DNA of 32,000 nucleotides from Candidatus Fokinia solitaria (GTDB lineage Bacteria; Pseudomonadota; Alphaproteobacteria; Rickettsiales; Midichloriaceae), in contig NZ_CP025989.1 of the NCBI RefSeq assembly GCF_003072485.1, forward strand, positions 90,001 to 122,000, in the 5' to 3' direction. The notes beneath the pieces were generated by a model. It saw only the letters and a program-made list of their open reading frames with translations, was not told where the DNA came from and ran no database searches. Both the position numbers and the translations under genes were made by a program. This document shows, piece by piece, positions 95 through 26,300 of the stretch (within the stretch, counting starts at the first letter, position 1; each line of letters opens with the position of its first letter).

Positions 95-170
95 TGGTGA
101 TCCTGATGCGACTCGAACGCATGACCTACTGATTAAAAGTCAGTTGCTCTACCGACTGAGCTACAGGATC
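95..170 (-). tRNA. tRNA-Lys (anticodon UUU), 76 nt, CCA encoded
   Basis: Hand-folded cloverleaf on the minus strand. Acceptor GATCCTG/CAGGATC, D stem GCTC/GAGC, anticodon stem ACTGA/TCAGT with loop CTTTTAA (anticodon TTT). T stem ATGCG/CGCAT with loop TTCGAGT, discriminator A, then CCA. Confidence 0.9.
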
Positions 171-495: not shown

Positions 496-2553
496 TTGGT
501 AAATCGTACCAGATATGAATGTAGAGCGGATGATATGAGCTTTGAATTGCTAGGCACGCTGAATAGAGTTCGCAGAAAGAGTAATAAAGGATACGATGTG
601 CTAAGTCCTATTTATGAACTACTTCTCAATGCTGTCAATGCCGAATGTAATAACGAGAAGGTAGATAAAGATGTTACTATCGAGATAGAATACACAACGA
701 AGGAGATACATAAGAAAAAGTATATTAATTATATTAAAATTTCTGATTACGGAGTTGGATTTAGCGAAGACAATTTTCAATCATTCAAAAATCTGTACTC
801 AAGTACAAATCAAAAACTTGGCTGTAAGGGAGTAGGAAGATTTCAAATTATGAGATCTTTTCATCAGATCAAAGTTAAGAGCTTTGATGATAATAAAAGA
901 TTTTCTTTCGATTTAGCGGAGTGCAACTATAACCAAAACAACATAGAAGGATTTTCAGAGAAACAGAGCCTTAATAGTTGCGATGCTGAAGCGAAAAAAA
1001 CGGTAGTTGAATGTGTTTATGATATAGCGAAAAAGAATAAGGATTTTGATGATGCTATACCTATGGCAGCGCCTGATGAAGAGGACGTGAAGGAGAAAAT
1101 TTTTTCAAAATTACTACTGAAATTAATATTACTTAAGAAAAGTGAATTTTGCATCGATATTAAATTGCAAGGTAAAAGTTTCATTACAAATACTGATATT
1201 GACGATCTGTCTGATATTGAGCAATCTTTTACTATCAAGGATATTGATGATAAGTTTACAATCTATCATTTGGTGACTAACCGTATTAAAGCAAAAACGA
1301 ATGAATGTAGAAATTATATTACATATGTAGCGGATGCTGTTGAGGTGACGAAAGACACATCTTTTTTTCAAGGTAAATCAAAATTTTTATACGAAGATGA
1401 TGAGAAGAAGCGATATATAGGTATTATAGAAAGTGACTATTTAAATAAACATGTTTCAGATAATAGGGAGGAATTTGATATAAAGCAGGAGACTTTTGAT
1501 AGTATTACAGAGAGTTGCAATGAACAAGTTGAGCGTAAGCTGAAAAAGGAACTCGAAAAGTACTATTCTGTTCAAGAGGATAAAATTAATAGAGTAAACG
1601 ATATGTATCCATTCTTAAAAGTAAAAGATCGATGTTTTGAGTACAAGCCGGATGACACGGAGGATGATATAGCTGAAAAAGGTTACATTTATTTGGCAAA
1701 AAAAGGATTTAAAAGCTTTAATGGTCTTAAAGAAAGGCTACTACAGTTCAATGAGAAGATAGCAGATAACATAAAGGACAAACAAGGAACATTATTTCCA
1801 GAGACTTCTTTAAAAGAAGAAATTTGTAATATAGCTGACGCAATTCAGAATGTTAGGAAGGATTCTTTAGCACGCGCGGTAACAGAAGAGTATGTAATCT
1901 TGCGGTTACTCGAAGAATATATTAAGCAAGAAAGTAAAGAATCTTGTATACATGAGCTTGTCTTTCCAAGATTTAAAAAGTACAGTAACGAAGAAAAAGA
2001 AGCATATGATAAAGCCAATTTATGGCTGATTGACGACAAGTATATCGGTTATAACCATGAGTATATCGCTTCTGATCTAAAAATTGAAGACTTTGAAGTG
2101 GAACTATCAGACAGATCTGGGGCAGCGAATAAAGAGAAAAGAAAGAGGCCAGATTTATGTATATTCCAAGATAGTGAACACATCGAGCCAGTAGTGATAA
2201 TAGAGTTTAAATCACAATCATCACGAGAGCAAATAAAGCACGTTACTGACCAGGTCGAGGAGTATGCGAAGATAATCAGTGCAATGTCGAGTAATCGATA
2301 TTCGAGATTCACATTACTGATTATTCAGCCGATTGAAAAAATGGAATCTACTCAAGGTTATCTGAATGAAGAGGGCTGGACTATTTTGAAAGAGTCACAT
2401 CATTATATGAAGGTTCCGCAAGGTGTATATAATAACAAAAGAGAGCCAATACATCTAACGTATGAATTAATAAGTATAAAGAGATTTGCAGAATTAGCAA
2501 AAAAGCGCAAAGAGAAGTACATAAAAGCTTTAGGGCTAGAGCTGCCGAAATAG
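496..2553 (+). CDS. GHKL (Bergerat-fold) ATPase fused to a PD-(D/E)xK nuclease-like C-terminal domain; no recognised named family
   Basis: 685-aa ORF starting at TTG 496; the first ATG is at 535. N-box YELLLNAVNAE (E41, N45; nt 613-645). G1 box D84-Y-G-V-G88-F (nt 745-762). G2 box G109-CK-G112-V-G114-RF (nt 820-843). C-terminus: E487 in CIHELVFP (nt 1954-1956), P552-D553 in KRKRPDLCIF (nt 2149-2154), E570-F-K572 in VVIIEFKS (nt 2203-2211), then a QVEEY helix. The middle (about aa 130-480) is K/E/D/N-rich and looks helical. Confidence 0.8.
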   Translation: MVNRTRYECRADDMSFELLGTLNRVRRKSNKGYDVLSPIYELLLNAVNAECNNEKVDKDVTIEIEYTTKEIHKKKYINYIKISDYGVGFSEDNFQSFKNLYSSTNQKLGCKGVGRFQIMRSFHQIKVKSFDDNKRFSFDLAECNYNQNNIEGFSEKQSLNSCDAEAKKTVVECVYDIAKKNKDFDDAIPMAAPDEEDVKEKIFSKLLLKLILLKKSEFCIDIKLQGKSFITNTDIDDLSDIEQSFTIKDIDDKFTIYHLVTNRIKAKTNECRNYITYVADAVEVTKDTSFFQGKSKFLYEDDEKKRYIGIIESDYLNKHVSDNREEFDIKQETFDSITESCNEQVERKLKKELEKYYSVQEDKINRVNDMYPFLKVKDRCFEYKPDDTEDDIAEKGYIYLAKKGFKSFNGLKERLLQFNEKIADNIKDKQGTLFPETSLKEEICNIADAIQNVRKDSLARAVTEEYVILRLLEEYIKQESKESCIHELVFPRFKKYSNEEKEAYDKANLWLIDDKYIGYNHEYIASDLKIEDFEVELSDRSGAANKEKRKRPDLCIFQDSEHIEPVVIIEFKSQSSREQIKHVTDQVEEYAKIISAMSSNRYSRFTLLIIQPIEKMESTQGYLNEEGWTILKESHHYMKVPQGVYNNKREPIHLTYELISIKRFAELAKKRKEKYIKALGLELPK

Positions 2554-2676: not shown

Positions 2677-2751
2677 TGGCTCCCCGGGTTGGATTCGAAC
2701 CAACGGCCAAGCGGTTAACAGCCGCTTGCTCTGCCACTGAGCTACCGAGGA
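2677..2751 (-). tRNA. tRNA-Asn (anticodon GUU), 75 nt, CCA encoded
   Basis: Hand-folded on the minus strand. Acceptor TCCTCGG/CCGGGGA (one G-U pair), D stem GCTC/GAGC, anticodon stem AGCGG/CCGCT with loop CTGTTAA (anticodon GTT). T stem GTTGG/CCAAC with loop TTCGAAT, discriminator G, then CCA. Confidence 0.9.
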
Positions 2752-2843: not shown

Positions 2844-3464
2844 CTAAAAACAAAAAATTTGCTCATTAAATCCGACAATATCTAGTGCAGCGATCGTTGG
2901 AATTACGTCAAAACATTTTTGTGCTACCTCCATTTTTCCATCTCTTATAAGGATCTTATTTAATTTCTCCACTAGCTTATGTAAATACAATACATCATAT
3001 GCAGCGTACTCCTTTTGTTCTTCTGTGAGGACTGCTTCTCCCCAATCCGATGTTTGTTGCGTTTTAGATAGTTTTACTCCGAGTAATTCTGCGCAAAGCG
3101 ATTTTAGTCCGTGATAATCCGTAAAGGTGCGTGACAACTTTGAAGCGATTTTTGTACAATATATATTCTTCATTGATATATTAAATGATTGCTGTAGTTT
3201 TGCTACATCAAATCTTGCGAAATGAAAGATCTTTAAGAGTTTTTCATTAGACAGGAGCGTAGTGAGATTGACCGCTTCTATATAGTCGTTTTTGCTGCGG
3301 AAATGCACGAGATGCACTTCATCTGTGCCGAAGCACAATTGCACTAAACACATCCTATCTCTCATTATATGCAATCCCATTGCTTCTGTATCAAGCGCTA
3401 CGGCAGTGTATTCATTCTCGAGTAGCGACGACGGTATATCGTTAATGTGATAGTGTACGATCAT
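2844..3464 (-). CDS. rnd: Ribonuclease D-like 3'-5' exonuclease (DEDDy domain only, about 206 aa, no HRDC domains)
   Basis: DEDDy motifs ALDTEAMGL (DxE), HFARFDV (D) and YAAYDVLYL (Yx3D). The start is placed at the internal ATG 3464 (MIVHYHINDIP...). The longer ORF to 3632 adds a low-complexity extension that overlaps gshA antisense. Confidence 0.75.
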   Translation of the reverse strand: MIVHYHINDIPSSLLENEYTAVALDTEAMGLHIMRDRMCLVQLCFGTDEVHLVHFRSKNDYIEAVNLTTLLSNEKLLKIFHFARFDVAKLQQSFNISMKNIYCTKIASKLSRTFTDYHGLKSLCAELLGVKLSKTQQTSDWGEAVLTEEQKEYAAYDVLYLHKLVEKLNKILIRDGKMEVAQKCFDVIPTIAALDIVGFNEQIFCF

Positions 3465-3531
3465 ACAAAAAGATTGACTAAAACAGTATCTAAGAGGAAG
3501 ATTATCATCCTTGTCTAGATTATAAAAAATC

Positions 3532-4770
3532 GTGAAAGAGTACAGTAAAATATGCGCTTTACTTTCTGAGAAGAAAGAAATGACTGCTAAGTGGTACAAA
3601 GAACTAGTTGATAGATACACTGCCAATGACATCGTTGTGCCTTTATATTACTCGATTGATTTCAGAGAGTCCTGCTATAAGAGTACCGTGGTAGATTGTA
3701 ATATGTTTCCTGCGGGTTTCATGCATGTACGGTATAATGAAGAAATTGTACAGGCATTTCAGAAGTATATTTCAGAATATACTGATAAGTTTCGTAAAAG
3801 TATATCAGCAATATATCTTATACCTGAGAACTTTACTCGAAACTCATTCTATATACGGAATGTTGTAAGATTGTCGAAGATTCTTCGAGAAGTGGCTTTA
3901 AGACTCAAGGTAGAGTTTTCTTTATTGTTGGACACTGATAACGAATTGTTATTTATCGAATTGCAAGATGCAATCATGAATTTTCGACAATTGCCAATTT
4001 TACAGTATAATACCACCATAAACGACGATGCTTTAATCATTTTGAATAAAGACCTTACAAATGGTATGTCTTCGATATTATCGTCTGCGAAGAGTGTGTT
4101 ACCTAATCCTCTATATGGCTGGTATCGCAGAAGTAAGTATAACTTTTTTCAAAAATATGAAGCGCTTGCAGTGGAAGTTTCAAAGATTCTGAATTGCGAT
4201 TCGTGGTTCTTTTGTTCGTTGATATCATATGTCTCAATGAGTGGAGATAGTTGGAAGAGTGAAAGCGAATCTTTAGCATTGGCAGTAGATTCTCTTATAA
4301 AAAGAATTAGCGAAAAATATGCATTATACGGGATTAAAGATGCACCTAAGGTATTTGTGAAATCAGACAACGGTACATTTGGTAGGGCGAATATTGCTGT
4401 ATTTTCAGGCGATGACATCAGAAAGCTTAATAAGAAGAATAGAGAAGAGCTTTATAAAAGCGGTATAGAAAATAACTTTGTAATACAAGAATGCGTGTAT
4501 AGCACTTTATGTAATGAAAACGAGAAGCTGTTTCTCTCATCATTAATGTCAGAGAATGCTTCGTGCGAACGTATGCTATATACTATTGGCGGACAGCATC
4601 ACGCCACTTTATTACGAACTAATACCAAAAAAGGAAGTGGCGAGAATCTGAATACTCCTGGAATGTCAATCGCAAATATAGACCATATACCTTACAGTAA
4701 TCCTTTGGAAGGCCTTATAGTACAACTTACTACTCTTGCTACTATGGAAGAGTTATCTTGTATATGCTAG
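3532..4770 (+). CDS. gshA: Glutamate--cysteine ligase, proteobacterial GshA family (Pfam GshA/PF08886-like, recalled from memory)
   Basis: Blocks recalled as typical of this family: DCNMFPAGF, LIPENFTRNSFY, GWYRRSKYNFF, KYALYGI, VFVKSDNGTFG, VIQECV, GENLNTPGM. GTG start at 3532; alternative ATG at 3580. Confidence 0.7.
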   Translation: MKEYSKICALLSEKKEMTAKWYKELVDRYTANDIVVPLYYSIDFRESCYKSTVVDCNMFPAGFMHVRYNEEIVQAFQKYISEYTDKFRKSISAIYLIPENFTRNSFYIRNVVRLSKILREVALRLKVEFSLLLDTDNELLFIELQDAIMNFRQLPILQYNTTINDDALIILNKDLTNGMSSILSSAKSVLPNPLYGWYRRSKYNFFQKYEALAVEVSKILNCDSWFFCSLISYVSMSGDSWKSESESLALAVDSLIKRISEKYALYGIKDAPKVFVKSDNGTFGRANIAVFSGDDIRKLNKKNREELYKSGIENNFVIQECVYSTLCNENEKLFLSSLMSENASCERMLYTIGGQHHATLLRTNTKKGSGENLNTPGMSIANIDHIPYSNPLEGLIVQLTTLATMEELSCIC

Positions 4771-22862: not shown

Positions 22863-23190
22863 TTTATTCATAGAGTAAGTAGCAGTAGATATCACTACTA
22901 CAACCTTTACTATTGTTGAAGTTTTGCGTATGTAGTGTTGCAGTCAAGAGAAGGCGAAGAAGTGAAAGTATTTGAAGAAGTTTCTGTTGTGTGTCTTTCA
23001 TTTTATTGAAAAACTTACTGAGCATCGAGACGTTTAAGTACTTCGCTTTATTGAAGGGTAAGAAAGTGTTATTTGCCTATTTTTGCTGATTCGATCTATG
23101 ATTTTTCATTAATGAAGAATACATTGTGAGTTTCTGCTTAGTGGAAAATTTCCTTCATAGAAAGCCATCTTAATGCAATATCTTCACCTT

Positions 23191-23487
23191 CTATTCTTTT
23201 ACCAAAGTAAAACTCATTATGTTTTTAATCTCAGGTATATTAGCCATTATTTCGTTAAACAAAGAGTACGACGTTATAGAATCAACTATCTTCTTAGGTA
23301 TGCTTTCAATCTTAAGTATGTCTCTATTATTTTCTTCGTTGAAGAGTGTTAGTTTTATAAGAAGTCTGTGATAAGTAACGTCATAAGCGGCCTTTGCATT
23401 TTTGTATACTGCGGTGCCACTTGTATTGCGACTTGCTTCTTGCAATCCACTTCTGATTAGCGCATCTTTCGTTATTGTATCAAGCAA
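23191..23487 (-). pseudogene. Diverged duplicate of the ligA C-terminal tail (98-codon ORF, TTG start), probably non-functional
   Basis: It encodes ..KDALIRSGLQEASRNTSG.. and ..LFNEENNRDILKIES... The ligA tail has ..EDALIGSGLQEASRGTEK.. and ..LKKRMEDELKDIIVKIEH... The DNA blocks match the ligA tail at about 85% identity (see repeat features). Confidence 0.4.
23324..23394. repeat. Dispersed repeat block X (partner X' at 23697..23768)
   Basis: ctattattttcttcgttgaagagtgttagttttataagaagt... matches ctattattttctttcgttgaagagtgttagttttataggaagt... About 85% identity with one indel (manual alignment). The core caatgaagaatgttgtttta-like string also resembles the 114-bp ligA tail unit. Confidence 0.8.
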
Positions 23488-23500
23488 AGAGGATAGTGTT
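23428..23500. repeat. Dispersed repeat block Y (partner Y' at 24111..24183 inside the ligA 3' end)
   Basis: gcgacttgcttcttgcaatccacttctgattagcgcatctttcgttattg... matches gcgacttgcttcttgcaatccacttccgatcagcgcatcttccattattt... About 10 mismatches in 73 nt (about 86%). Confidence 0.85.
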
Positions 23501-23696
23501 ATATCACAAATTTCTTCTTTAATTACTGTTTAGTCAGTATGCTGTCAGATCAATAGTATTATTTCATAGATCTATCAATGATATCGTAAGTACGTTCTGA
23601 ATTGCTTTGTTCACTGAAGAAATCTTTTATAGAGTGAGATTATTACCTCATAAAGCTATTTATAGAGTACAGCGCATCTATATTTTGACTTAGCTT

Positions 23697-23768
23697 CTAT
23701 TATTTTCTTTCGTTGAAGAGTGTTAGTTTTATAGGAAGTTCGTAGTAAGCAATATCATAAGCAGCTTC
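23697..23768. repeat. Dispersed repeat block X' (partner X at 23324..23394)
   Basis: See block X. The copies are 373 bp apart in the same orientation. Confidence 0.8.
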
Positions 23769-24035
23769 TGAATCTCTTCGCGTAGAGAAGGAATTTTACA
23801 GAGTATTTTATTTCGTTAGCGATGTATTCGGTGAAGAATGCGGCATATCTGTTTCTTTCAATTTCTTATCTTACGTTTAATGAGTTGTGTTCGACAAAGA
23901 GTGGTTATGCTGTAAGAGAATAGTAGTTAATGATTCAGCGGTGTTCTACATTTCCCTGCGTAGTGAGATGATCTGTATAAGGAGGACTATTTCTTTAGCG
24001 ACGCTATGCATGGAATGCAGCGCATTCTTTTGCGT

Positions 24036-26300
24036 TTATGTGGAAATTGCTGTTAGTTCTCGAACCTCCGTTGCTAATGGAAAGCAAGCTGAGAGATCTT
24101 TTTCTGTACCGCGACTTGCTTCTTGCAATCCACTTCCGATCAGCGCATCTTCCATTATTTCATCAGGCGAAGAGGATTGTTTTCGGTCATGTTCTATCTT
24201 CACGATAATATCCTTAAGTTCATCTTCCATTCTTTTTTTCAATGAAGAATGTTGTTTTAGAAGGAAAGCTTTTTTCTCACTGATGCTATTTATATAATGC
24301 AGAGCTTTATTTCTCACCATTTCTCTAATCAGTTCATCTTTCATTCTTTTCCTCAATGGAGAATGTTGTTTTAGAGGGAAAGCTTTTTTCTCACTGATGC
24401 TATTTGCATAGTGCAGAGTTTTATCTCTCACCATTTCTTTCAATGAAGAATGTTGTTCTATAGAGAGGATGTCATCCAATGCATGAATTAGTGCTATATT
24501 TTCTTGTGCAGTGAAGAAATTCTTTATAGAGGCAGCTGTTTTCTCACCTATGCCTTTCATACTAAGCGTTCCTTCTGATATTTTTCTCATTAGATCCTTC
24601 AATGAAGAGATTTGAGAAGCGATGATCTTTGCGCTTTCCTTACCAACATGCGGAATACATAATGATAATATGAGATTACATAGCGATACATTATAAGACT
24701 TCTTTATTGCGTATATAAGATTTTGCACACTCTCCTCTCGCCAGCCATCCAATCTTAATATACTCTCAATTTTTGCATTATCAGTTGCAATTTTTAATAT
24801 ATCGACAAACCCTTTTATAATTTCTGCTTGATATAATTGTCTGATTTGTTTTTCACCAAATCCCGCTATATTCATACAATCTTTGCTTACAAAATGTATC
24901 ATCCTTTGTATAGTTCTTTCACAACATGAAATATTTGGACAAATCAGTGTCGCGTCTGTTTCTCTTACTAATGAATGACCACAGAAAGGACATTCTGTGA
25001 TACTTGAAAATTTTGGCAACTCTGCTTTCTCATCTCTCTCGGAGTATAATACGTCGCAGATGCACGGTATAACTCCGCCAGATTTTTTGACAGTGATAAT
25101 ATCTCCTATTCTGATATCACGCTTCGTAATTTCTGCAAAGTTATGTAGAGTTACTCTCGTAATAGTTGTACCCGATATTATGATTGGTTCGACGACTGCA
25201 ATTGGTGTGAGATTGCCATGCTTCCCTACCTGTGGCACTATGGCCAATAATTTTGTTTCGTAAGAATCTGATGAGAACTTATATGCCATTGCACCTCTAG
25301 GCGCTGTAGCTGTATATCCAAGTGCATCCTGTATTTCGAGGTTATTTATTTTGCACACTATGCCATCTGTATCATACGAAATTTTTTTATTATTTTGCGC
25401 GACGGAAATATCATGATAAAACTCTCGAATTTCATTTATGCTATTCGCAATTTTAAATTCTGAAATAACGTCGAAACCGATTGTAGTTAAATATTTTCGT
25501 ACTTCGGTGTAATGCATTTTATCCTCTTGCAGAGTAGCGCTACCCCATACAAGATATGAGAGTATTTTATCGTTTTCGAATCTATTCTTTAACTGTCTTA
25601 ATATACCTGATGCCGCATTTCTTGTCGTGGAAAAAGGCTTTTCTCCATTTTTTCTCAAAGAACTATTAATTTCTTCAAATACACTATTTTTTATGAAAAT
25701 TTCTCCACGTACTTCAAATTCTTCGTAGTGACAGCCACTTTCTAGAAATGAAGGAAAATTCGCAATTAAATGTACATTTCTCGTAACGTCTTCTCCGTTT
25801 TCTCCATCGCCTCTAGTCAGAATGTGAGTCAATTTTCCATTCTTATACAGCGCGCTAAACGAAAGACCGTCCACTTTTGTTTCGCAGCATATAGGGTACA
25901 GCAGACTTATGTCCTGTTCTTTCTTTTTCAATAGAGTTGCAATTCTCTGTAACCACTCGTCTAATTCTTCCTCGTTAAATGCGTTATTTAATGAGTACAT
26001 TCGTTTTACATGAGATTTCTTTTCAAATCCTTTATTTGTGAGAAAGCCTACTGTACTGATGACACCGTTATCGTACATCTTCTGTACTGTTACTTTGTAA
26101 TCTGCTCTTAGATCAGATGCTTCCGGTATTTCATCAATCATCTTGAATAGCATCTCATAATACTGAATGAGCTTTTTCTTTCTTTCATCATACTCGCTGT
26201 CTGAGATGAGTGATTGATTTTGTACGTAGTACGCTCTGTTGTATTTTCTGAGTGCTTTCTCCAGCGTTTTAACTGTTGTTATCAGTGGAATAAGACTCAT
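24036..26300 (-). CDS. ligA: NAD+-dependent DNA ligase LigA, with the BRCT region replaced by a repeat-containing tail
   Basis: Ia domain (YYVQNQSLISDSEYD). Adenylation motif CETKVDGLS (K142, nt 25875-25877). OB domain, Zn finger CPFCGHSLVRETDATLICPNISCCERT, and HhH region (IPHVGKESAKII..., MKGIGEKTAASIKNFF). The last 144 aa or so (nt 24036-24470) have no BRCT-like pattern. Confidence 0.9.
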   Translation of the reverse strand: MSLIPLITTVKTLEKALRKYNRAYYVQNQSLISDSEYDERKKKLIQYYEMLFKMIDEIPEASDLRADYKVTVQKMYDNGVISTVGFLTNKGFEKKSHVKRMYSLNNAFNEEELDEWLQRIATLLKKKEQDISLLYPICCETKVDGLSFSALYKNGKLTHILTRGDGENGEDVTRNVHLIANFPSFLESGCHYEEFEVRGEIFIKNSVFEEINSSLRKNGEKPFSTTRNAASGILRQLKNRFENDKILSYLVWGSATLQEDKMHYTEVRKYLTTIGFDVISEFKIANSINEIREFYHDISVAQNNKKISYDTDGIVCKINNLEIQDALGYTATAPRGAMAYKFSSDSYETKLLAIVPQVGKHGNLTPIAVVEPIIISGTTITRVTLHNFAEITKRDIRIGDIITVKKSGGVIPCICDVLYSERDEKAELPKFSSITECPFCGHSLVRETDATLICPNISCCERTIQRMIHFVSKDCMNIAGFGEKQIRQLYQAEIIKGFVDILKIATDNAKIESILRLDGWREESVQNLIYAIKKSYNVSLCNLILSLCIPHVGKESAKIIASQISSLKDLMRKISEGTLSMKGIGEKTAASIKNFFTAQENIALIHALDDILSIEQHSSLKEMVRDKTLHYANSISEKKAFPLKQHSPLRKRMKDELIREMVRNKALHYINSISEKKAFLLKQHSSLKKRMEDELKDIIVKIEHDRKQSSSPDEIMEDALIGSGLQEASRGTEKDLSACFPLATEVRELTAIST
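24111..24183. repeat. Dispersed repeat block Y' (within the ligA coding tail)
   Basis: See block Y. It encodes ..SSSPDEIMEDALIGSGLQEASR.. on the minus strand. Confidence 0.85.
24218..24462. repeat. In-frame 114-bp tandem repeat (2 full copies plus a partial third) inside the ligA 3' coding region
   Basis: Copy 1 is 24218-24331 and copy 2 is 24332-24445 (period exactly 114 nt, 38 codons). There are about 10 mismatches over the first 107 nt (about 91%). A partial third copy (ttcaatgaagaatgttgtt) lies at about 24438-24460. Protein repeat: MVR[DN]K[TA]LHY[AI]NSISEKKAF[PL]LKQHS[PS]L[RK]KRM[KE]DEL. Confidence 0.9.

Follow-up and report, generated by a model that had tools for sequence, protein, structure and literature searches.

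The closest described systems are the paraMORC3 proteins, in which a GHKL ATPase with an S5 domain is followed by a C-terminal restriction endonuclease (RE)-fold domain carrying E-D-ExK (Iyer, Abhiman and Aravind 2008, Biol Direct 3:8; PMC2292703). They were described as stand-alone in proteobacteria and bacteroidetes, and a role accessory to restriction-modification (R-M) was proposed for the paraMORC proteins (PMC2292703). In 2023 the architecture was counted among the Shedu type I-D enzymes (Gu et al. 2023, bioRxiv 10.1101/2023.08.10.552793). In 2025 VcSduA (A1552VC_00276) of Vibrio cholerae was validated as an anti-phage gene that acts alone on expression in E. coli and whose defense is abolished by the substitutions E27A and K557A; proteins so organized "were previously annotated as paraMORC3" (Adams et al. 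2025, PMC12137116). The first-pass annotation of the locus studied here could match its ATPase-nuclease fusion to no named defense family, but the architecture is on record from 2008, 2023, and 2025, and the gene probably belongs to an already characterized family, an outcome which that annotation had itself listed as counting against its proposal.

The analyzed window is a 32-kb stretch of the genome of Candidatus Fokinia solitaria, a Paramecium endosymbiont with an 837-kb genome. Its other genes encode an RNase D-like exonuclease, GshA, SecD, an IspE-like kinase, LepB, Ddl, SecY, NuoL, MetK, FabD, FtsQ, EF-P, L6, MutS, FtsZ, LigA, Tgt, and RecD2, and the ATPase-nuclease gene is, as first noted, essentially the only one of the 32 kb outside housekeeping. 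The open reading frame called at 496-2553 on the plus strand has 685 aa when counted from a TTG at 496. The NCBI record, with the product name 'putative conserved ATP-binding protein [Candidatus Fokinia solitaria]', and the closest homologue, P0022, both begin at the same methionine, M14 (ATG, 535); the TTG start is therefore probably an over-extension of 13 untranslated codons. Thus, the frame and its tRNA-Lys and tRNA-Asn flanks stand as first reported, while the start had probably been placed too early. Rfam and promoter/terminator scans of the gene flanks returned only these two tRNAs. Residues are given in the 685-aa numbering unless marked 672-aa; E41 and K572 correspond to E28 and K559 in the latter (Table 1).

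Table 1. Features of the ATPase-nuclease locus (positions in the 32-kb window)
Feature	Position	Strand	Residues, basis, or remark
tRNA-Lys(UUU)	95-170	-	upstream context, outside the system
Complete gene	535..2553	+	ATG start (M14), 672 aa + stop; NCBI record and P0022 alignment
GHKL (Bergerat-fold) ATPase domain	535..1059	+	motif conservation, Foldseek, HATPase_c_3 in homologues
Motif I E	616-618	+	E41
Motif I N	628-630	+	N45
Motif II DxGxG	745-759	+	D84/G86/G88
Motif III GxxGxG	820-837	+	G109/G112/G114
Motif IV T	1000-1002	+	T169
Beta-rich transducer (S5-like middle) domain	1060..1539	+	AF2 secondary structure, Foldseek
R324 codon	1465-1467	+	conserved in 167/168
Long helical hairpin, two helices of ~40 residues each	1540..1929	+	AF2; joins ATPase module to nuclease domain
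PD-(D/E)xK nuclease domain	1930..2550	+	domain-only AF2, Foldseek, HSDR_N_2, residue conservation
Helix E482xxxH486	1939-1953	+	nuclease domain
NLWLID (W510, D513)	2017-2034	+	nuclease domain
S526-D527	2071-2076	+	nuclease domain
P552-D553	2149-2154	+	nuclease domain
E570-F-K572	2203-2211	+	nuclease domain
Q586xxxY590	2251-2265	+	nuclease domain
tRNA-Asn(GUU)	2677-2751	-	downstream context, outside the system

The Fokinia protein contains all four Bergerat motifs (ExxxN, DxGxG, GxxGxG, and T) in order, and these are 93%–100% conserved in an alignment of 168 family sequences. E41 was found in 164 of the 168 sequences and N45 in 166, D84/G86/G88 and G109/G112/G114 were present in all, and motif IV T169 was retained in 157. 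The N, G1, and G2 boxes noticed in the first reading were thus confirmed, with motif IV in addition. The Pfam HATPase_c profile scored the Fokinia protein at 19.8 bits, below the cut-off of 26.4, while HATPase_c_3 matched 13 of 21 homologues (best E 3.2e-10). In a Foldseek search with the AF2 model (mean pLDDT 71.6), the N-terminal ~400 residues matched GyrB43, the TRAP1 NTD-middle region, MORC2/3/4, and the PMS1 NTD at E-values of 3e-7 to 1e-4. The alignments were 340-430 columns long, those of 360-430 columns spanning the entire GyrB 43-kDa, TRAP1 NTD-middle, and MORC ATPase modules, and structure comparison thus places a predicted transducer domain behind a predicted Bergerat fold. Arginine R324 is a candidate gamma-phosphate sensor. 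The family transducer motif 'CANxRxV' is degenerate in the Fokinia protein ('VADAVEV').

The predicted hairpin helices occupy residues 376-415 and 424-464 (672-aa numbering) and have pLDDT values of ~60-79. The two modules had been thought to be linked by about 350 helical residues, but the AF2 model and Foldseek assign ~130-330 to the remainder of the GHKL domain and the beta-rich transducer, and long helices are confined to ~330-475.

The PD...ExK...QxxxY core of the C-terminal domain is strongly conserved: D553 and K572 occur in all 168 sequences, E570 in 167, Q586 in 161, Y590 in 156, and P552 in 145. The restriction endonuclease pattern recognized earlier therefore holds in its core, although the helix residue then chosen, E487, is Glu in only 36 of 168 sequences, and the invariant residues of this helix are E482 and H486 (168/168 each). 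The domain also has a basic 'motif II' loop of 25 residues. Conservation of the ATPase and nuclease motifs is far above chance. The domain modeled separately (pLDDT 87.4, pTM 0.87) has an alpha-beta-beta-beta-alpha-beta topology, and its best PDB and viral Foldseek matches, weak as they were (E >= 3e-3), were nearly all PD-(D/E)xK nucleases, including R.BspD6I, Can2, CidB, BamHI, Mrr, and Cas4. The best single Pfam match was HSDR_N_2 (E 8.5e-5), which at 23.1 bits falls short of the cut-off of 25, and sequence searches of solved structures, with a profile or single sequences, gave no match to this domain at E<=10.

Taken together, the gene likely belongs, as a divergent member, to the family of stand-alone GHKL-transducer-PD-(D/E)xK proteins (paraMORC3, or Shedu type I-D in the classification of others) and would encode an ATP-gated clamp-nuclease. 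Dimerization, the gating of cleavage by ATP, and the target DNA are inferred, as is any remaining defense function of the Fokinia copy. Two subunits would dimerize via their GHKL domains in the ATP-bound state, in the manner of MutL, MORC, and GyrB, and the transducer, with R324 as its likely phosphate sensor, would shut the clamp around DNA. The helical hairpin could pass this movement on to the C-terminal nuclease domains, which, with the catalytic residues E482, D553, E570, and K572 and the basic loop for DNA binding, would cleave the captured DNA, and ATP hydrolysis would reset the enzyme. As a rule, a family member likely provides innate immunity from a single gene, directed at phage or other invading DNA. 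In VcSduA, both the ATPase Glu and the nuclease Lys are reported to be required for phage defense (PMC12137116).

A profile search yielded 4,655 cluster representatives at E<=1e-3 and, at the stricter E<=1e-30, 1,993, all full-length (~660-690 aa). A genome scan with the pattern NLWL[IL]D[ED][RKS][LF] found the family in the genomes of at least 509 species from many bacterial and archaeal phyla, with Proteobacteria and Bacteroidota dominating; the Fokinia variant, NLWLIDDKY, falls outside this pattern, and relatives sharing it may be missed. The distribution of the family in bacteria and archaea is patchy, not universal. Nine plasmids carry relatives with 22%–33% identity, while tblastn with the Fokinia protein found no match in phage genomes.

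Family members typically adjoin restriction-modification, GmrSD, Abi, TIR, or integrase genes. The 45%-identical homologue neighbors GmrSD, a P2-like prophage, HipA, and Fic; a homologue in a Moritella prophage lies with AbiTii and BstA, and another with AAA_15, a radical SAM gene, and GmrSD_N. The earlier proposal of a stand-alone ATPase-nuclease in defense or conflict is therefore supported, both by the domain composition (GHKL, transducer/helical module, PD-(D/E)xK) and by the placement of homologues in defense and mobile-element islands. Some homologues are operonic with R-M genes: in Vibrio, hsdR, AAA_15, hsdM, and hsdS are followed after a 10-nt gap by the homologue, forming a type I R-M operon in a trmE-integrated island, and elsewhere the gene follows SNF2, N6_N4_Mtase, and ResIII. 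The enzyme might then be an accessory ATPase-nuclease of an R-M system, as Iyer et al. proposed (PMC2292703), which in Fokinia would work with unlinked R-M partners and not alone. The 122 immediate neighbors examined included many R-M, TIR, AAA_21, BrxL, and integrase genes, with R-M the commonest, but no Pfam family occurred in more than 4 of them, and no conserved partner gene emerged. Moreover, the 32-kb window contains no methyltransferase or restriction gene, and VcSduA works alone in E. coli (PMC12137116), so that we regard dependence on R-M partners as improbable.

The total GC content of the gene is 33.3%, compared to 36.8 +/- 1.7% for 21 neighboring genes, as the first-pass annotation had noticed. 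This is not a foreign signature, since GC3 (30.9% vs 31.4 +/- 2.8% for the same neighbors) and codon usage, with a codon-usage distance among the lowest in the window, match the host, and the low GC reflects a protein rich in K, E, N, I, and D. Neither an integrase nor att-like direct repeats were found at the tRNA-Lys/tRNA-Asn locus. Recent horizontal acquisition at a tRNA hotspot is therefore not supported, and the argument for an island is weak.

A role in defense is not obvious in this host, which lives as an obligate intracellular symbiont, contains two IS elements and few phage sequences, and has the smallest genome of the Rickettsiales (PMC5905368). Within the sample, the most divergent members are the Fokinia protein and its single close relative, the 45%-identical homologue, which keep 62% and 58%, respectively, of the family-conserved positions (median 96%); R282 of the transducer motif and R465 are among the residues lost. 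Such divergence, the highest from the family consensus in the sample, together with little evident phage pressure in the niche, would suit a functionless relic of an old acquisition awaiting deletion. However, chance alone would not keep a frame of 672 codons open at a genomic GC content of 36%. Of the 25 family positions with >=98% conservation, the protein has kept 23, with all catalytic residues of the two domains among them, and the 45%-identical homologue has the same residues. We therefore give the relic little credence.

Another possibility is co-option of the gene for housekeeping DNA maintenance, such as MutL- or MORC-like clamping, repair, or chromosome resolution, which, if true, would explain its retention in the 837-kb genome. 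Consistent with this are codon usage and GC3 indistinguishable from those of housekeeping neighbors, an intact frame with all catalytic residues in so small a genome, the many otherwise conserved surface or regulatory positions altered in the Fokinia clade, and the GHKL-S5 module common to MutL and MORC. On the contrary, the only close relative lies in a defense/prophage island with no conserved housekeeping context, the family is patchy, and of the 80 loci retained from the genome scan, narrow as its pattern was, none came from another Rickettsiales genome. Co-option for housekeeping thus seems unlikely.

The clade was seen only in two AT-rich alphaproteobacteria, Fokinia and a metagenome-assembled genome (MAG), and two JGI metagenome scans revealed no further relatives. 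Conceivably, though we consider the chance slim, it is a rare, fast-evolving offshoot, perhaps retained in the smallest Rickettsiales genome for a use other than phage defense, which may be chromosome or DNA maintenance or a nuclease directed against competing symbionts or the host. If true, this would explain the loss of conserved non-catalytic residues with both active sites intact.

Returning to the reading that we favor, an ATP-gated clamp-nuclease of the paraMORC3/Shedu type I-D family, the gene is real, its architecture is already published, and it adds no new class of systems; the one unusual point is that its host, an endosymbiont of Paramecium, has a very small genome. Finding a seemingly intact nuclease of innate immunity in an obligate endosymbiont of this genome size is a small curiosity, which suggests that foreign DNA still reaches the symbiont within Paramecium or else that the enzyme has been put to another use. 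For annotation, the name paraMORC3/GHKL-Shedu-type ATPase-nuclease can be given to the Fokinia protein and to thousands of relatives recorded only as "ATP-binding protein". The family as a whole is missed by Pfam, NCBIfam (2026), and PADLOC v2, and since anti-phage activity has been reported for one member, this gap deserves to be closed. PADLOC v2 gave no defense-related match for the Fokinia protein, 21 homologues, or 42 C-terminal domains.

Among known systems, the GHKL proteins MutL, MORC, and GyrB share with the Fokinia protein the Bergerat fold, the transducer, and the expected ATP-driven dimerization clamp. Unlike them, it has no MutL C-terminal dimerization/endonuclease domain, Toprim, or CW or coiled-coil MORC additions, and its C-terminus is a PD-(D/E)xK nuclease. 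The family profile gave only 23-residue matches to PMS2 near DxGxG, at E~1, when searched against the PDB for MutL membership. Identity with MutL, HtpG, or a topoisomerase subunit was rejected, in agreement with the initial reading, since the match is limited to the generic GHKL module. The N-terminal nuclease of the type I restriction enzyme HsdR is also similar, its HSDR_N_2 match, below the gathering threshold, covering the PD...ExK...QxxxY core, but the Fokinia protein has no SF2 helicase motor, and the GHKL module would drive the nuclease instead.

Like VcSduA and other Shedu type I-D enzymes, the Fokinia protein combines a GHKL ATPase, a clamp-like middle domain, and a PD-(D/E)xK nuclease in one polypeptide, with the catalytic Glu and Lys present. 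These lie at close positions, E27/K557 in VcSduA and E28/K559 (672-aa) in Fokinia, a comparison by residue number that links the two proteins indirectly; across the family, the motif I Glu falls within residues 25-30 and the Lys of ExK within 548-563 (E27/K556 in V. cholerae members). Four of these members, P0189, P0190, P0201, and P0209, were considered as VcSduA itself and rejected: they carry K556 and sit in the trmE island, and are therefore not the VSP-II gene. As described for Shedu, the catalytic Asp is preceded by a long loop, and ExK is followed by a long helix. The SduA_C profile (DUF4263, PF14082) left the Fokinia domain unmatched at E<=10 and matched 5 of 42 family C-terminal domains weakly (best E 0.0067), and solved Shedu structures were absent from the best 50 Foldseek matches of the nuclease domain. 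Canonical Shedu forms tetramers via the nuclease domain.

The agreement with paraMORC3, matched by description, covers the intact-motif GHKL domain, the S5/transducer, and the C-terminal RE-fold domain with E-D-ExK (RecB-like, QxxxY), in which E482, D553, E570, and K572 are invariant or nearly so and the domain model has an RE-type core. It extends to the distribution, sporadic, chiefly in Proteobacteria and Bacteroidota, and often stand-alone, as also seen here in the at least 509 species genomes with no conserved partner. In contrast to described paraMORC3 proteins, the Fokinia/MAG clade shows unusual divergence, and the Arg conserved in 'CANxRxV' has been lost from it.

The product of the Fokinia ORF, a GHKL ATPase fused to a PD-(D/E)xK nuclease, was 100% identical to the NCBI 'putative conserved ATP-binding protein' and is encoded on an 837,348-bp contig. 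The first-pass annotation had listed this ORF at 496-2553(+) with the start codon TTG. The ORF is present, but both the NCBI protein and the closest homologue, P0022, begin at the ATG at 535, 13 codons after this TTG, and therefore the gene most likely spans 535-2553 and encodes 672 aa. As had been proposed, it lies between two tRNA genes and is essentially the only non-housekeeping gene in 32 kb: all remaining sizeable ORFs with a Pfam match at E≤1e-5 in the window had housekeeping functions, including SecD, SecY, Ddl, MetK, FabD, FtsQ, FtsZ, EF-P, L6, MutS, LigA, Tgt, RecD2, NuoL, and GshA.

The 364-nt spacer between tRNA-Lys and the gene (171-534) is non-coding, with a purine-rich run at about 296-325; it had no match in Rfam, and its promoter-like sites did not exceed chance expectation. 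The ORFs of an RNase D-like exonuclease (2844-3632, minus strand) and a GshA-like protein (3532-4770, plus strand) overlap at their 5' ends by 101 nt as listed, and their real starts probably lie further downstream. The region 22863-24440, between ftsZ and the 3' end of ligA (24036-26300, minus strand), is gene-poor and contains decayed duplications. Owing to these duplications, a repeated peptide is found in the C-terminal tail of LigA.

Coordinates of the tRNA genes flanking the Fokinia gene and of repeats in the window
Feature	Position	Strand	Remark
tRNA-Lys(UUU)	95-170	(-), opposite to gene	flank
tRNA-Asn(GUU)	2677-2751	(-), opposite to gene	flank
tandem pair, 114-nt	24217-24324 + 24331-24438		91%
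repeat, 79-nt	23422-23500 + 24105-24183		85%
repeat, 70-nt	23330-23399 + 23704-23773		80%

Conservation was assessed in an alignment of 168 full-length family members (685-aa numbering). The Bergerat motifs recognized in the first-pass annotation were retained throughout: E41 in 164 members, N45 in 166, and D84, G86, G88, G109, G112, and G114 in all 168. In addition, T169 of motif IV was found in 157. The same holds for the nuclease pattern, with D553 and K572 in 168/168, E570 in 167, P552 in 145, Q586 in 161, and Y590 in 156. The proposed helix glutamate E487 was conserved in only 36/168 proteins, whereas E482 and H486 of the same helix are invariant. W510 and S526 (168/168 each), R324 (167/168), and D513 (166/168) were also near-invariant.

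The full-length AlphaFold2 model (mean pLDDT 71.6) matched in Foldseek the GyrB 43-kDa fragments, the TRAP1 NTD-middle region, the ATPase modules of MORC2/3/4, and the N-terminal domain of PMS1 (E 3e-7 to 1e-4). Since these matches extend over 340-430 alignment columns, the N-terminal ~400 residues of the model represent a GHKL domain and a transducer (S5-like) domain, the latter replacing the long helical linker assumed earlier. Next to the transducer, on its C-terminal side, come two helices, each about 40 residues long. The C-terminal 233 residues, modelled alone with 42 sequences (pLDDT 87.4, pTM 0.87), are predicted to adopt an alpha-beta-beta-beta-alpha-beta core. In this model, the first helix bears E482/H486, D553 is at the start of the second strand, E570-x-K572 is on the third, and Q586xxxY590 is on the long helix after it. 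Foldseek matches of this domain were weak (best E 6.6e-3) but consistent: the best PDB matches were mostly PD-(D/E)xK nucleases, among them R.BspD6I, the Can2 nuclease domain, the Wolbachia CidB nuclease domains, arenavirus cap-snatching endonucleases, BamHI, and XisH, and annotated viral-model matches included Mrr, Cas4, VRR-NUC, and restriction endonucleases.

Curated libraries hardly recognized the Fokinia protein. Its sole Pfam match was HATPase_c at 19.8 bits, below the cut-off of 26.4; PADLOC models gave no match, NCBIfam gave a single match at chance level, and no sequence relation to any solved structure was found. The top Pfam match of the isolated C-terminal domain was HSDR_N_2 (E 8.5e-5, 23.1 vs cut-off 25 bits), and SduA_C/DUF4263 weakly matched 5 of 42 family members (best E 0.0067). 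The first homology search found six distant relatives (23–24% identity), and a profile search yielded P0022 (45% identity) and more members. When 1.84 billion cluster representatives were searched exhaustively with the profile, 4,655 matched at E≤1e-3 and 1,993 did so at E≤1e-30; of the 4,655, the 150 top-ranking matches were essentially all full-length (about 620-730 aa). A useful by-product of this work is that this large family escapes Pfam, NCBIfam, and PADLOC v2. Relatives were carried by nine plasmids. Upon scanning one genome per GTDB species, they were found in at least 509 species. The matches listed came from Bacteroidota, Proteobacteria, Firmicutes, Planctomycetota, Verrucomicrobiota, Saccharibacteria, and archaea, a patchy spread typical of horizontally mobile genes.

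The Fokinia gene itself was not recently imported. The AT-richness noticed earlier was real for total GC, the lower value originating from second codon positions, but GC3 is host-like (30.9% vs 31.4 ± 2.8% in neighbours). Its codon-usage distance from other genes was among the lowest in the window, and no flanking integrase or att-like repeats were found. The published description of the Fokinia genome mentions two IS elements but few sequences of phage origin (PMC5905368). Reuse of this host-like gene in housekeeping DNA maintenance is, in our view, improbable. The protein and one close relative were the most divergent of the members sampled; the Fokinia protein kept 62% of family-conserved positions (median 96%) and 23 of the 25 positions conserved at ≥98%, including all catalytic residues, and the gene is unlikely to be a functionless relic. 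Ahead of the catalytic Asp lies a loop of 25 residues, longer than in any other sampled member and unusually basic (seven K/R vs median three). No more members of the Fokinia clade were found in JGI metagenomes.

The neighbour survey covered 122 immediate neighbours from loci of 64 of the at least 509 species. They included DNA methylases, ResIII and DEAD helicases, restriction endonucleases, TIR_2, AAA_21, SLFN/AlbA_2, BrxL, integrases, resolvases, and phage genes. In the P0022 locus (L001 6965-12064; MAG C8_D7_3, labelled Alphaproteobacteria, 35% GC), genes for a GmrSD-type enzyme and for a protein with DUF4268 adjoin, next to P2-like tail genes, an ankyrin-repeat protein, HipA, and Fic/RhuM; the juxtaposition with GmrSD and DUF4268 recalls the pairing of GrwAB with VcSduA that was reported for VSP-II of V. 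cholerae. A Moritella viscosa member resides inside a prophage with AbiTii and BstA_C, while others adjoin a RES toxin, occur with AAA_15, radical SAM, and GmrSD_N, or come after SNF2, MTase, and ResIII. PADLOC mad2 and mad3 (MADS system) matched immediate neighbours in 3/64 loci (E down to 1e-54), which hints that certain members may lie beside or within MADS-like loci. The 672-aa Vibrio cholerae member (L089 10001-12019, GCA_037154475.1; also L090 and L091) is fifth in an operon after hsdR, AAA_15, hsdM, and hsdS, 10 nt 3' of hsdS, and is followed by RhuM; this operon belongs to a trmE-integrated island that also carries an integrase, MobI, and DUF927. Other hosts of this subfamily include V. 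parahaemolyticus, Klebsiella, and E. coli, and its members from Vibrio, Klebsiella, E. coli, Morganella, and Aeromonas are 81–84% identical. No conserved partner emerged among the 122 neighbours, every Pfam family being found in at most four, and we assign a low probability to the Fokinia protein being an accessory to a restriction-modification system with unlinked partners.

Apart from the corrected start, helix glutamate, linker, and GC origin, the initial observation was confirmed, and motifs, folds, and contexts support its reading as an ATPase-nuclease enzyme of defence type. In such an enzyme, the GHKL domains would dimerise upon ATP binding, the transducer domain would shut the clamp round DNA, the helical hairpin could pass this movement on to the nuclease domains, these would cut DNA as the probable target, and ATP hydrolysis would reset the enzyme. 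The motifs, folds, and contexts in this scheme were observed here, while the need for both activities would carry over from VcSduA (PMC12137116).

Contrary to what the first-pass annotation had implied, this architecture is not new. All features quoted for the known family paraMORC3 (Iyer, Abhiman and Aravind 2008, PMC2292703) were tested and found here, in the Fokinia protein or in its relatives. The Shedu homologues listed by Gu et al. 2023 (10.1101/2023.08.10.552793) include some that combine a GHKL (HATPase_c_3) fold with a linked middle domain. VcSduA, with the same architecture, guards E. coli and V. cholerae against phages (Adams et al. 2025, PMC12137116); protection requires E27 (ATPase) and K557 (nuclease) and does not kill the host, and such proteins "were previously annotated as paraMORC3" (PMC12137116). 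The Fokinia protein is probably a new, divergent member of this already known family.
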